Shown here: in pieces, positions 22,367 through 40,563 of the stretch
How positions within the stretch are numbered: the first letter of the stretch is position 1
Layout of the letters: the number at the start of each line of letters is the position of its first letter
NCBI GenBank assembly: GCA_017444895.1
Contig: JAFSVR010000025.1
Span: 1-46,353 of the forward strand
Reading direction: 5' to 3'
Length of the DNA: 46,353 nucleotides
DNA from: Clostridia bacterium
Lineage (GTDB): Bacteria > Bacillota > Clostridia > Christensenellales > UBA1242
Notes under the pieces: model-generated
What the model was told of the DNA's origin: nothing
Database searches by the model: none
What the model saw: the letters and a program-made list of their open reading frames with translations, nothing else
Made by a program: the position numbers and the translations under genes

Positions 22367-24340
22367 TTACTTACTATTTTTTAATTTTGCCCCCAATTTT
22401 GCAATTTCGTCTCGCAATGCAATAGCTTCTTCAAAGTCTAACCTACTAGATGCAATCTTCATCATAGCCGTAAGTTCTTCAATGCGCTTAGGGATGTTTT
22501 CTTGTTTAATTTTTTGCCCCTTGTCTTCAACCTTGCTTGAAATCTGCAATGTATTCTTAATTTCTTTTATTATCGTTTTTGGTGTTATATTATGCTCTCT
22601 ATTATATTGCATTTGAATAGATCTTCTTCGGTTTGTTTCACTGATTGCTCTATTCATAGAATCAGTCATAGTATCAGCATACATAACAACCCTACCTTCA
22701 CTATTTCTTGCAGCTCGCCCAATTGTTTGAATCAAACTGCCTTCGCTTCTTAAGAACCCTTCTTTGTCTGCATCAAGGATGGCAACAAGTTTAACCTCTG
22801 GCAAGTCAAGCCCTTCTCTAAGCAAATTAATTCCAACAACAACATCAACCTCTCCACTTCTTAGGCTGTTGATAATTTCAATCCTCTCCATAGTTTTAAT
22901 TTCGCTATGAAGATAAGTTGATTTTATCCCGTTTTTTGTTAGATATTCACCCAAACTTTCCGCCATCTTTTTTGTTAACGTTGTAACCAACGCCCGTCCG
23001 CCAGATTTGATCGTCTTATTAAGCTCACTGATAAGATCATCAATCTGCCCCTTTGTTGGCCTAACTTCAACTTCAGGATCCAAAAGCCCCGTTGGACGGA
23101 TAATCTGCTCTGCAATGTTATCTTGCCTTTCCATTTCATATGGCCCAGGAGTTGCAGAAACACATATCATTTGGTTAATCTTTCTTTCAAACTCATTAAA
23201 CTTTAATGGCCTATTATCATAAGCTGACTTCATCCTAAAGCCATACCCAACAAGACTGTCTTTCCTTGCCCTATCACCATTATACATTGCTCGAACCTGT
23301 GGAATTGTCATATGACTTTCATCAACCAATAGCAACCAATCATCAGGGAAATAATCTAGAAGAGTGTATGGCTCCTCACCCGGTTTCCTGCCATCAAAAT
23401 ATCTTGAATAGTTCTCAATGCCGTTGCAATATCCAATTTCACGGAGCATCTCAATGTCGTAACTAACACGCTGTTTTAGTCTCTGCGCCTCAATCAGTTT
23501 GCCTTGCGACTCAAAATCTGCAACCTCTTTAACCATGTCTTCTTCAATATTCTTAAGGCAATTTTCGAGTTTCTCGCTTCCAACAACATAGTGGCTAGCA
23601 GGATAAATCGCAACATGGCTGAGAGTGCTGACAGTCTTGCCACTAACCGCCTCTACCTCGCAAATGCGATCGATTTCATCCCCAAAAAATTCTATTCTTA
23701 TTGAATGCTCGCTTTGGCTTGCAGGAAAAACATCCAAAACATCACCATTAACCCTGAACGTTCCCCTCACAAACTCAACATCATTTCTTCTATATTGGTT
23801 ATCCACAAGCCGAGAAACAACTTCTTCCCTTGAAATTTTCATATTAGGCCGAAGAGAGATTGCCATTTTTTCATATTCACTTGGCTCTCCAAGCCCATAT
23901 ATGCAAGAGACAGACGCAACAATGATAACGTCTTTTCTTTCAAACAATGAACAAGTTGCTGAATGCCTAAGTTTATCTATTTCATCATTAACCTGCGTTT
24001 CTTTTTCAATGTAGGTGTCACTACTTGCAATATACGCCTCTGGCTGATAAAAATCATAATAACTGACAAAATAATTAACACTATTGTTTGGAAAATATTC
24101 CCTAAACTCATTGCAAAGCTGGGCAGCCAAAGTTTTATTATGTGCCAAAACAAGCGTTGGCCTACCCACTTCTTTTATAATATTGGCCATTGTGAAGGTT
24201 TTCCCGCTTCCCGTAACGCCAAGCAAAACTTGAGTGCGCAACCCATCTCGCACTCCTTGAACCAAACTTTTAATGGCCTGGGGCTGATCCCCCGTTGGCT
24301 TGTGTTTGGAAATAAGCTCAAAAACTTCTTCTTTTGCCAT
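22367..24340 (-). CDS. uvrB: Excinuclease ABC subunit B
   Basis: [38 protein letters not shown]-terminal UVR domain. Confidence 0.98.
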
Positions 24341-24448
24341 ACTATTGTTTATTATAAACATTTCAAGATGTTTTATCAATAGTTTAATGTAATTTATGGT
24401 ACACTTCTCACCTTAGCAACAATATTTTAACAAACCTTAACACAGCGC

Positions 24449-24477
24449 TTGACAACCGCATCGCATTGTGGTAAATT
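24449..24477 (+). promoter_or_regulatory. Sigma-A promoter of the T-box-glyQS transcript
   Basis: TTGACA-17 nt-TAAATT with extended TG. Confidence 0.7.
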
Positions 24478-24492
24478 ATTGATAGTTTAATA

Positions 24493-24618
24493 GTTGTGTA
24501 GATTTTGGGTGGCGCCAAAGGAACAACAAAACCTTAAAAGAGGCCAAACACTGTTTGGCAATAAGGGTGGAACCGCGGTTAAATAATCGTCCCTGTGCAA
24601 CATGCATGGGGATTTTTT
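24493..24618 (+). ncRNA. Glycine-specific transcriptional T-box riboswitch (miniature)
   Basis: T-box AAGGGTGGAACCGCG (bulge 24568-24574), antiterminator partner CGTCCCT, terminator 24590-24618, Stem III GCCAAAC/GTTTGGC, K-turn Stem I with GGC at 24511-24513; lies upstream of glyQS. Confidence 0.9.
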
Positions 24619-24637
24619 ATTTTAAGGAGGATAAAAG

Positions 24638-26011
24638 ATGGAAAATAAAGCAACAATGGAAAAAATCGTTAACCTTTGCAAAGGGCGTGGATTCGTTTAT
24701 CCAGGAAGCGACATCTATGGCGGGTTTGCAAACACATGGGATTATGGTCCACTTGGAGTTGAACTTGAAAACAACGTTAAAAAAGTTTGGTGGAAAAGAT
24801 TTGTTCAAGAAGGCGAGAATGCTTATGGCGTTGATGCTGGAATCTTGATGAATCCACTTGTTTGGACGGCATCTGGCCACACAACAAGTTTCTCAGATCC
24901 AAAAATGGATTGCAAAAACTGCAAAAACCGTTTCAGAGCAGATAACATTATTGAGGAGCACTCAAAAGGCAAAGTTGCAGCAGAGGCAATGACTAACGAG
25001 CAAATGGAAAAATATATTGAAGACAACAACATCCACTGCCCTGTTTGCGGAAAGAAAGATTGGACACCAATTCGCCAATTCAAGCTCATGTTTGAAACAA
25101 GCCGAGGCACGGTTGAGGGCGACAAAGACGTTGTATATCTTCGCCCAGAAACCGCACAAGGCGAATATGTTAATTTCGTTAATGTTGCAAGAACAACTCG
25201 CGCAAAATTGCCATTTTCAATTGCTCAAATTGGAAAGGCCTTCAGAAATGAAATAACCCCTGGCAATTTCTTGTTCAGAACCATTGAGTTTGAACAAATG
25301 GAGCATCAAACATTTTGCAAAGCCGAGGATGCACAAAGAATATATAACGAAAGAAAAGAACAAGCATTGAAGTTTGCAAAAGACGTTGGATTGCCAGAAA
25401 ATAAACTCAGATTCCACGACCACGACAAGCTTGCACACTACGCAAAAAGCGCCTGCGACATTCAATACCTATTTCCAATTGGCTGGGAAGAACTCAACGG
25501 CATCCATCATCGCGGAACATGGGATCTTTCTCAACATGAAAAAACCAGCGGAAAGAGCATGCAATACACTGATCCAATAACTAACGAAAAACTAACACCA
25601 ACCGTAATTGAATATTCAATCGGTGTTGGAAGATTAACCCTCGCTCTTCTATGCGAAGCATATGACGAAGAGGTTCTAGAAAACAACGAAACAAGAGTTG
25701 TCATGCATTTCAACCCTGCTCTTGCACCATATAAAGTGGCCGTTCTTCCACTTCAAAAGAATTTAAGCGATAAGGCAAAAGAAGTTCTAAGTAAACTCAA
25801 CAAACACTTTATGTGCACATATGACGAAGCTGGTTCAATTGGCAAGCGCTATCGCCGTCAAGATGAAATTGGAACGCCTTTCTGCGTGACAATAGACTTT
25901 GACACCCTTGAAAACAATACAGTAACAATTCGCGACAGAGATTCAATGAAACAAATCACCCTTAAAATTGATGAAGTTGCAAAATACATTGAAGATAAAA
26001 TTGCATTCTAA
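24638..26011 (+). CDS. glyQS: Glycine--tRNA ligase, alpha2 type
   Basis: IYGG..NTWDYGPLG, YLRPETAQG, GKAFRNEITPGNF.FRT.EFEQME, GSIGKRYRRQDEIGTP. Confidence 0.97.
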   Translation: MENKATMEKIVNLCKGRGFVYPGSDIYGGFANTWDYGPLGVELENNVKKVWWKRFVQEGENAYGVDAGILMNPLVWTASGHTTSFSDPKMDCKNCKNRFRADNIIEEHSKGKVAAEAMTNEQMEKYIEDNNIHCPVCGKKDWTPIRQFKLMFETSRGTVEGDKDVVYLRPETAQGEYVNFVNVARTTRAKLPFSIAQIGKAFRNEITPGNFLFRTIEFEQMEHQTFCKAEDAQRIYNERKEQALKFAKDVGLPENKLRFHDHDKLAHYAKSACDIQYLFPIGWEELNGIHHRGTWDLSQHEKTSGKSMQYTDPITNEKLTPTVIEYSIGVGRLTLALLCEAYDEEVLENNETRVVMHFNPALAPYKVAVLPLQKNLSDKAKEVLSKLNKHFMCTYDEAGSIGKRYRRQDEIGTPFCVTIDFDTLENNTVTIRDRDSMKQITLKIDEVAKYIEDKIAF

Positions 26012-40293: not shown

Positions 40294-40563
40294 ACCGCAA
40301 TAGGTGGGGAGCTAGCAGTGCCCTATTACCCTGAAATCTGCTTTAGCAGGGGCCGAACGCCTTTTTAGGCTTTTAATATGGAAGGCTGAGAAGAGCAAGC
40401 AGTGTTGATTCCAAGGTCTTGTGCAATAAAATTCTTATGAACCGTGTCAGAGTCTGACGACAGCAGCACTAAGTTTGAAGATTATGTGCCACAAGGTAGC
40501 TTTGGTGGAGCTGGCTACTATTCTACCGCTTCGGTATTAAAAGTCGAAATTGGAATTTGCGGT
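40294..40563 (+). ncRNA. ffs: Large (Alu-containing) bacterial SRP RNA / scRNA
   Basis: ACCGCAA...TTGCGGT closing helix; Alu-like GGGGAGCTAGCAGTGCCCT...TAGCAGGGGCCGAA; S-domain ATGAACCGTGTCAG...AGCAGCACTAAG; colinear with Bacillus scRNA as recalled. Confidence 0.92.

Follow-up and report, generated by a model that had tools for sequence, protein, structure and literature searches.

Transcriptional T-boxes 'generally require' a long Stem I with an elbow platform, for fast tRNA capture, according to the portions of PMC7583486 available to us; in the same portions, a truncated Stem I has hardly any affinity for tRNA unless Stem II is present, and short Stem I's function only if a Stem II domain accompanies them and only in switches that act on translation. 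That glycyl T-boxes can dispense with Stem II is attributed to the strong, purine-sandwiched GGC:GCC duplex (PMC7583486 and PMC11404447, available portions). For the glyQS system, the available sections of PMC6197855 describe a K-turn hinge that couples anticodon reading to NCCA-end capture, and a platform point mutation that lowers first-step affinity ~40-50-fold and leaves the second step unaffected.

Here we analyse the glyQS leader in a 46,353-nt stretch of DNA (hereafter the window; positions 1-46,353 of contig JAFSVR010000025.1, assembly GCA_017444895.1) from a Clostridia bacterium (UBA1242, Christensenellales), whose genome assembly (G000) comprises 836 kb in 53 contigs and is 96.8% complete. 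We put the probability that this leader is a working transcriptional T-box attenuator, sensing uncharged tRNA-Gly(GCC) through two contacts only, at roughly 0.8. From its anatomy, the matching tRNA, its conservation and its covariation we infer binding of that tRNA and regulation of the downstream gene; a glycine tRNA would then probably be read by a much smaller RNA than textbook accounts of T-boxes call for.

Promoter and anatomy of the glyQS leader

The leader (24493-24618) precedes the gene for a glycyl-tRNA synthetase (GlyRS), orthologues of which were found in 58 of 60 other genomes searched at 52-82% identity, and the upstream neighbour gene is divergent (Table 1). The promoter has 10 of 12 hexamer matches with a TG ahead of the -10 element, and transcription would start near 24484. 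Relatives carry TTGACA-16/18-TAnAAT promoters that are equally strong and equally placed relative to the leader. In the window, 15 nt separate the near-consensus promoter from the hairpin, too few for a long Stem I, and a start site far upstream of the hairpin, an eventuality raised by the first-pass annotation of this DNA, is unlikely.

Table 1. Elements of the glyQS leader and its surroundings, in window coordinates.
Feature	Position	Strand	Description
Sigma-70-type promoter	24449-24477	+	-35 TTGACA 24449-24454; 17-nt spacer; extended -10 TGgTAAATT 24469-24477
Ultrashort Stem I	24493-24527	+	35 nt; GUUGU-[GUA]-GA-UUUUGG-(GUGGCG)-CCAAAG-GA-ACAAC
Stem I C-stem	24493-24497/24523-24527	+	5 bp
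Stem I bulge GUA	24498-24500	+	3 nt; sequence reading
Tandem GA, K-turn pattern	24501-24502 and 24521-24522	+	sequence reading
Stem I distal stem	24503-24508/24515-24520	+	6 bp; sequence reading
Apical loop GUGGCG	24509-24514	+	6 nt; carries specifier
Specifier GGC (Gly)	24511-24513	+	U24510 before, purine G24514 after
Linker AAAACCUUAAAAGAG	24528-24542	+	15 nt, A-rich; no Stem II, no IIA/B pseudoknot
Stem III	24543-24559	+	7 bp, 3-nt loop; then AA 24560-24561
Antiterminator	24564-24594	+	helix A1 24564-24567/24591-24594; helix A2 24575-24580/24585-24590
T-box bulge UGGAACC	24568-24574	+	7 nt, within antiterminator
Intrinsic terminator	24589-24623	+	11-pair hairpin 24589-24613; U tract 24614-24623
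Shine-Dalgarno AAGGAGG	24624-24630	+	sequence reading
glyQS-type GlyRS ORF	24638-26011	+	457 aa, alpha2-type; ATG at 24638

The first-pass annotation, made from the letters alone, had described a short Stem I whose 6-nt loop holds GGC and a purine, 15 nt between it and Stem III, an antiterminator with a UGGAACC bulge whose variable A would face U73 of tRNA-Gly, and an intrinsic terminator; all of these parts are present where it placed them. Stem I in isolation folds at -8.7 kcal/mol. What had been called a clean K-turn holds as a sequence pattern, a 3-nt bulge with tandem GA/GA, and is confirmed no further than that pattern. The 3' end of the linker, AAGAG, is compatible with the purine motif RRRNG that precedes Stem III in T-boxes (PMC7778990, available portions).

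Downstream of Stem III, 24560-24594 reads AAUA-AGGG-UGGAACC-GCGGUU-AAAU-AAUCGU-CCCU, and the sequence UUUUUAUUUU follows the terminator hairpin. That hairpin (-14.8 kcal/mol) overlaps the antiterminator and reuses its 3' strand, so the two structures are mutually exclusive. With Stem III kept, the terminator fold reaches -24.2 kcal/mol against -16.4 kcal/mol for the antiterminator fold (7.8 kcal/mol apart), and since the terminator fold is the more stable, termination (off) would be the default state, as in T-boxes. The Shine-Dalgarno sequence lies outside the switch: the U tract ends at 24623 and there is no Shine-Dalgarno sequestrator. For the complete leader the folding energy is -47.5 kcal/mol (z = -4.1), a stability that none of 200 shuffles matched.

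Recognition as a glycyl T-box and the cognate tRNA

An Rfam scan of the whole window at gathering thresholds did not report the T-box model RF00230, which the first-pass annotation had named for a search, and returned only an SRP RNA. A sensitive search of 24300-24700 (401 nt) gives an RF00230 match at 24470-24597 with 46.3 bits (E 3.1e-9), half of the gathering score of 93 because 86 Stem I positions of the model are replaced by 5 nt. Posterior probabilities are high in the discriminator half, where the segment AGGGUGGAACCGCG...CGUCCCU meets model positions 183-219; the leader has no counterpart to a long Stem I that carries AG bulge and distal loop (the interdigitated T-loop platform). An IIA-like pairing AGG/CCU suggested by the RF00230 alignment in the window was dropped, as it has no consistent support in relatives. 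The SRP RNA, of the large bacterial type (RF01854), scores 143 bits at 40295-40562.

ARAGORN finds 35 tRNA genes in the window genome. Among them is tRNA-Gly(GCC) (G000 C16:10253-10327), whose anticodon loop is UUGCCAA and which carries U73 and an encoded CCA, so that within one genome the GGC specifier is complementary to the GCC anticodon and the A of UGGA to U73. The identification of the leader as a glycyl T-box is thus supported by the GlyRS gene downstream, the GGC specifier and the match of UGGA to U73. The same set of 35 genes includes tRNA-Gly(CCC); no tRNA-Gly(UCC) was found in this 96.8%-complete assembly, where it may be unassembled.

The thrS (87.4 bits) and pheS (85.9 bits) T-boxes of the window genome keep a full-length Stem I, which indicates that the shortening is specific to the glycine leader. 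The thrS T-box (L001:1501-1686; G000 C11:3971-4156) combines a full Stem I and an ACC specifier with an Rfam alignment in which hardly anything remains of the Stem II and IIA/B columns (7 positions in place of 27, IIA/B gapped); a thrS T-box without Stem II and IIA/B would be unusual for a non-glycine T-box.

A reductive series of leaders within one family

GlyRS loci were drawn from related genomes, 80 genome records, 80 metagenome contigs and model hits, the nearest belonging to uncultured Clostridia/Christensenellales gut MAGs such as Candidatus Borkfalkiaceae, Onthoplasma and Gallimonas. The window's family consists of gut Clostridia with reduced genomes of ~0.8-1.3 Mb (about 1 Mb). Leaders were sorted automatically by how many nucleotides separate the T-box motif from the 3' end of the specifier hairpin, a distance that is trimodal (36-48, 53-62 and 64-80 nt). 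By this sorting, which called L201 wrongly minimal (corrected by hand), listed L067 as 'none' despite its T-box and placed L056, L082 and L115 in group B although they resemble group A, the 184 distinct GlyRS rows divide into 107 with no T-box within 450 nt, 28 in group B (ultrashort Stem I, small Stem II hairpin and IIA/B), 23 in group A (ultrashort Stem I and IIA/B only), 17 in group C (ultrashort Stem I with neither Stem II nor IIA/B, the window's type) and 9 with a long Stem I or other arrangement.

A GC-rich 3-bp hairpin whose loop can pair just downstream occurs in 24 of 24 distinct group A linkers, 26 of 28 group B linkers and 0 of 15 short linkers, as scored by a crude hairpin-plus-pseudoknot script that also reports some spurious hairpins. 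Inspection by eye shows CGC-loop-GCG-UAA with a covarying complement (for example GUC/GAC, GCC/GGC, GCCUU/AAGGC, GCUC/GAGC) as the recurrent pattern of groups A and B. The window's leader shares with these sister leaders the promoter position, the ultrashort Stem I with U-GGC/GGA-R, Stem III, discriminator, terminator and the glyQS gene downstream; group A keeps a covarying IIA/B and group B a small Stem II hairpin as well as IIA/B, whereas the window's type has lost both. Together with the RF00230 alignment, the linker survey bears out the annotated absence of both auxiliary tRNA contacts, the distal Stem I platform and Stem II or IIA/B. Because most relatives keep IIA/B, with or without the small Stem II, we read the window's leader type as the end of a reductive series within this bacterial family. 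The first-pass view lacked this context: across the family, ultrashort-Stem-I transcriptional glycyl T-boxes form a series, and the window's leader stands at its extreme.

Several other loci surround this series. The two closest relatives, L005 and L006 (G004 and G001; GlyRS 82% identical), have no T-box before glyQS, and such control is therefore dispensable in this lineage; in both, glyQS lies ~45 nt after another ORF. L014 and L015 (G003 and G005) look intermediate: they combine a K-turn with UUGGCAC as internal specifier loop and with a distal hairpin that is only short, AU-rich and free of a platform, and they have neither Stem II nor IIA/B. A motif (A/C)CUU(A/U)(A/G) occurs in 6 of 15 minimal linkers, namely at 24534-24539 of the window and in L008, L017, L195, L163 and L167, and may be a remnant of the 3' strand of F-box/IIA-B (GCGUAA in groups A and B).

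Conservation and covariation of the minimal leaders

Seventeen distinct leaders have the window's architecture, spread over several lineages of the same family, metagenome contigs and, once, another Clostridia family. They are the window's own leader, L008, L017 (= L018 = L158), L079, L163, L165, L167, L166 (= L199), L171, L173, L175, L176, L180, L195, L196, L200 (downstream gene unconfirmed) and L224. The last lies in a 2.8-Mb genome of a family outside the window's order, before glyQ (alpha subunit, the other GlyRS type), and is the sole model match in 43 genomes of its family (E <= 1e-8). A sample of 145 genomes from 41 other families of the window's order gave no model match at the strict threshold of E <= 1e-9.

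The loop codon is glycine in 17 of 17 minimal leaders, as U-GGC-R in 11 and U-GGA-A in 6. It switches between close relatives: L163 has GGC and L165 and L167 have GGA, in a Stem I that is otherwise near-identical. The K-turn parser required GG[CA] in the loop and is left out as codon evidence. Of six glycyl leaders in this data set that have a long Stem I, four carry A and two carry U directly ahead of GGC. Anticodon loops follow the pattern U33-NNN-R37, which the Stem I loop would share through the invariant U ahead of its codon and the purine behind; that U24510 pairs with A37 of the tRNA is speculation.

Covariation was counted in alignment A5, which holds 13 minimal leaders, related in sequence, and is fitted to the model and leans towards it; in plain MAFFT alignments of the leaders, Stem I and Stem III do not stay in register, and all counts use model-based alignments. 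Paired cells amount to 92.5% against 69.8% in shuffled alignments, 20 of 26 pairs are changed on both sides (11.8 when shuffled), and the covariation score is 0.538 (0.175 when shuffled), values that 0 of 500 shuffles reached; sliding the partners by 1-3 columns leaves 36-50% of cells paired. Both-side changes occur in all 11 Stem I pairs (5 + 6) and all 7 Stem III pairs, with 84-87% of Stem I cells paired. The four held-out leaders, L195, L196, L200 and L224, fit model R2 at 58-79 bits with Stem I kept, and the K-turn of L008 is non-canonical. Conservation and covariation in relatives, which the first-pass annotation had left as points to check, thus lend support to its suggestion of a distinct minimal T-box class.

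The minimal form persists in several lineages. On a FastTree GlyRS tree, the minimal state requires at least 9 changes, which would mean either many gains and losses or movement of the leader-gene unit between lineages. Within one genus (the window genome, G002/G006, G007 and G003/G005), GlyRS genes fall in three well-separated, starred clades of the tree, a split that may reflect transfer of glyQS together with its leader inside the family. A contig from a near-identical strain shows no difference across 24444-24636 against 3 differences in 6 nt just upstream (one low-depth contig; 4 DNA runs). In the metagenome-contig leaders L163, L165, L171, L173 and L176, the stretch directly ahead of the U tract is complementary to the Stem III region, and the predicted terminator is a long hairpin enclosing the whole T-box bulge helix. 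This suggests that L163-type leaders may use a Stem III-versus-terminator switch instead of the usual strand swap.

Proposed mechanism and alternatives

What the leader retains are the elements behind both sequence-specific contacts of a T-box, together with the K-turn hinge. Transcription would begin near 24484, and the 35-nt K-turn hairpin would then offer U-GGC-G in an apical loop resembling an anticodon loop, for pairing with the GCC anticodon. The K-turn and the 15-nt linker would direct Stem III and the UGGA bulge at the free U73-CCA end. If the tRNA is uncharged, the antiterminator would be held and RNA polymerase would read into glyQS; otherwise, the more stable terminator and its U tract would form. 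Three G-C codon-anticodon pairs would make the loss of elbow platform, Stem II and IIA/B tolerable: the published strength of the GGC:GCC duplex, invoked to explain why glycyl T-boxes have no Stem II, plausibly allows the further loss seen here. As a platform mutation affects only first-step affinity in the available sections of PMC6197855, a platform-free leader should bind more weakly and still lock an uncharged 3' end.

Those same affinity data, by which a Stem I without platform and without Stem II binds poorly (available portions of PMC7583486 and PMC6197855), would also suit a tRNA-Gly sensor that works only with a helper, either a protein or another RNA contact, gripping the elbow or clamping the codon-anticodon helix. 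K-turns are known protein-binding sites, and a protein fraction restored function to the thrS T-box of B. subtilis in vitro (PMC7583486, available portions). However, a search of the 96.8%-complete window genome for an L7Ae-type K-turn protein (PF01248) found none, the 14-26-nt linkers hold no conserved extra RNA element, and the recurrence of the architecture in the distant 2.8-Mb Clostridia genome makes a lineage-specific helper less likely. We consider dependence on a helper unlikely.

The reduced genomes of the family (about 0.8-1.3 Mb) and the frequent loss of the glyQS T-box, absent within 450 nt in the 107 rows given above and from the two closest relatives, would favour a decaying T-box, in which discriminator and terminator survive, Stem I no longer selects a tRNA, and the attenuator is constitutive or leaky. 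Yet Stem I covaries, with 11 of 11 pairs changed on both sides and most cells paired, every minimal leader keeps its glycine codon with U before and a purine after, and the near-identical contig, single and low in depth, is unchanged across the leader next to the upstream differences; such a relic is quite improbable. Most improbable of all is that the hairpin is a leftover Stem II plus IIA/B, with the true Stem I absent or upstream: cmscan does place 24493-24537 in the Stem II and IIA/B columns of RF00230, and the linker's CCUUA resembles the F-box CCGUUA of the model consensus, but posterior probabilities are low across that stretch, the hairpin's GA/K-turn pattern is that of a Stem I base and its loop holds a glycine codon, in relatives the same hairpin is followed downstream by a separate IIA/B pseudoknot, and the promoter excludes an upstream Stem I.

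Our preferred reading, a functional attenuator that contacts tRNA-Gly twice, was weighed against the published requirement for a long Stem I, the cost of platform mutations, the closest relatives that have no such leader, the K-turn of L008 and the missing PF01248 protein. A wider proposition, which we hold tentatively and at somewhat less than even odds, is that a leader of ~105-125 nt with two tRNA contacts, to the anticodon and the NCCA end, suffices for co-transcriptional control. Stem I would act as an anticodon-arm mimic, pairing its U-GGN-R loop with the anticodon loop of tRNA-Gly in a loop-loop helix that U24510-A37 might lengthen. The minimal form would have emerged repeatedly, one family deleting Stem II and IIA/B and another Clostridia lineage reaching it independently.

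If functional, a conserved class that has neither platform nor Stem II but still ends in a terminator would greatly lower the minimum needed to sense a tRNA. If the wider proposition is true, this would be the smallest natural tRNA-sensing riboswitch, overturning the view that transcriptional T-boxes need the elbow platform. The natural deletion series, from Stem II plus IIA/B through IIA/B only to neither, lets the contribution of each module be measured, and engineers could use the leader as a compact tRNA-responsive part. Such leaders escape annotation pipelines that apply the Rfam cut-off, given 46.3 bits against 93.

Comparison with known T-boxes

In the literature covered, which includes the available portions of PMC7583486, PMC7778990, PMC11404447, PMC9177973 and PMC6197855, we found no description of a transcriptional T-box with an apical-loop specifier, nor of a glycyl T-box with neither platform nor Stem II. 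Some minimal members may already be listed in the 'truncated Stem I' set of the TBDB supplement (PMC7778990, Supplementary Fig. S3).

Among described systems, the ultrashort-Stem-I translational ileS T-boxes of Actinobacteria (TBDB class II; N. farcinica) resemble the window's leader in the short K-turn hairpin, the apical-loop specifier and the lack of an elbow platform. Unlike the window's leader, which has neither module, they carry a Stem II S-turn and IIA/B, essential for binding, and they sequester the Shine-Dalgarno sequence, whereas the window's leader ends in an intrinsic terminator (both points from the available portions of PMC7583486). With the glycyl (glyQS/glyS) transcriptional T-boxes of Bacilli and Clostridia (RF00230; structures from B. 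subtilis, G. kaustophilus and O. iheyensis), the leader shares the gene class, GGC followed by a purine, the K-turn at the base of Stem I, the absence of Stem II, a short single-stranded linker, Stem III, the UGGA bulge for U73 and the competition of terminator and antiterminator. It differs from them in lacking ~70 nt of Stem I, comprising the distal helix, the AG bulge and the elbow-docking distal loop, and because the distal Stem I is missing, the specifier sits in the apical loop and not in an internal loop. On these comparisons of sequence and predicted structure, we regard the leader as a new architectural variant of a known riboswitch class, conserved in several lineages.
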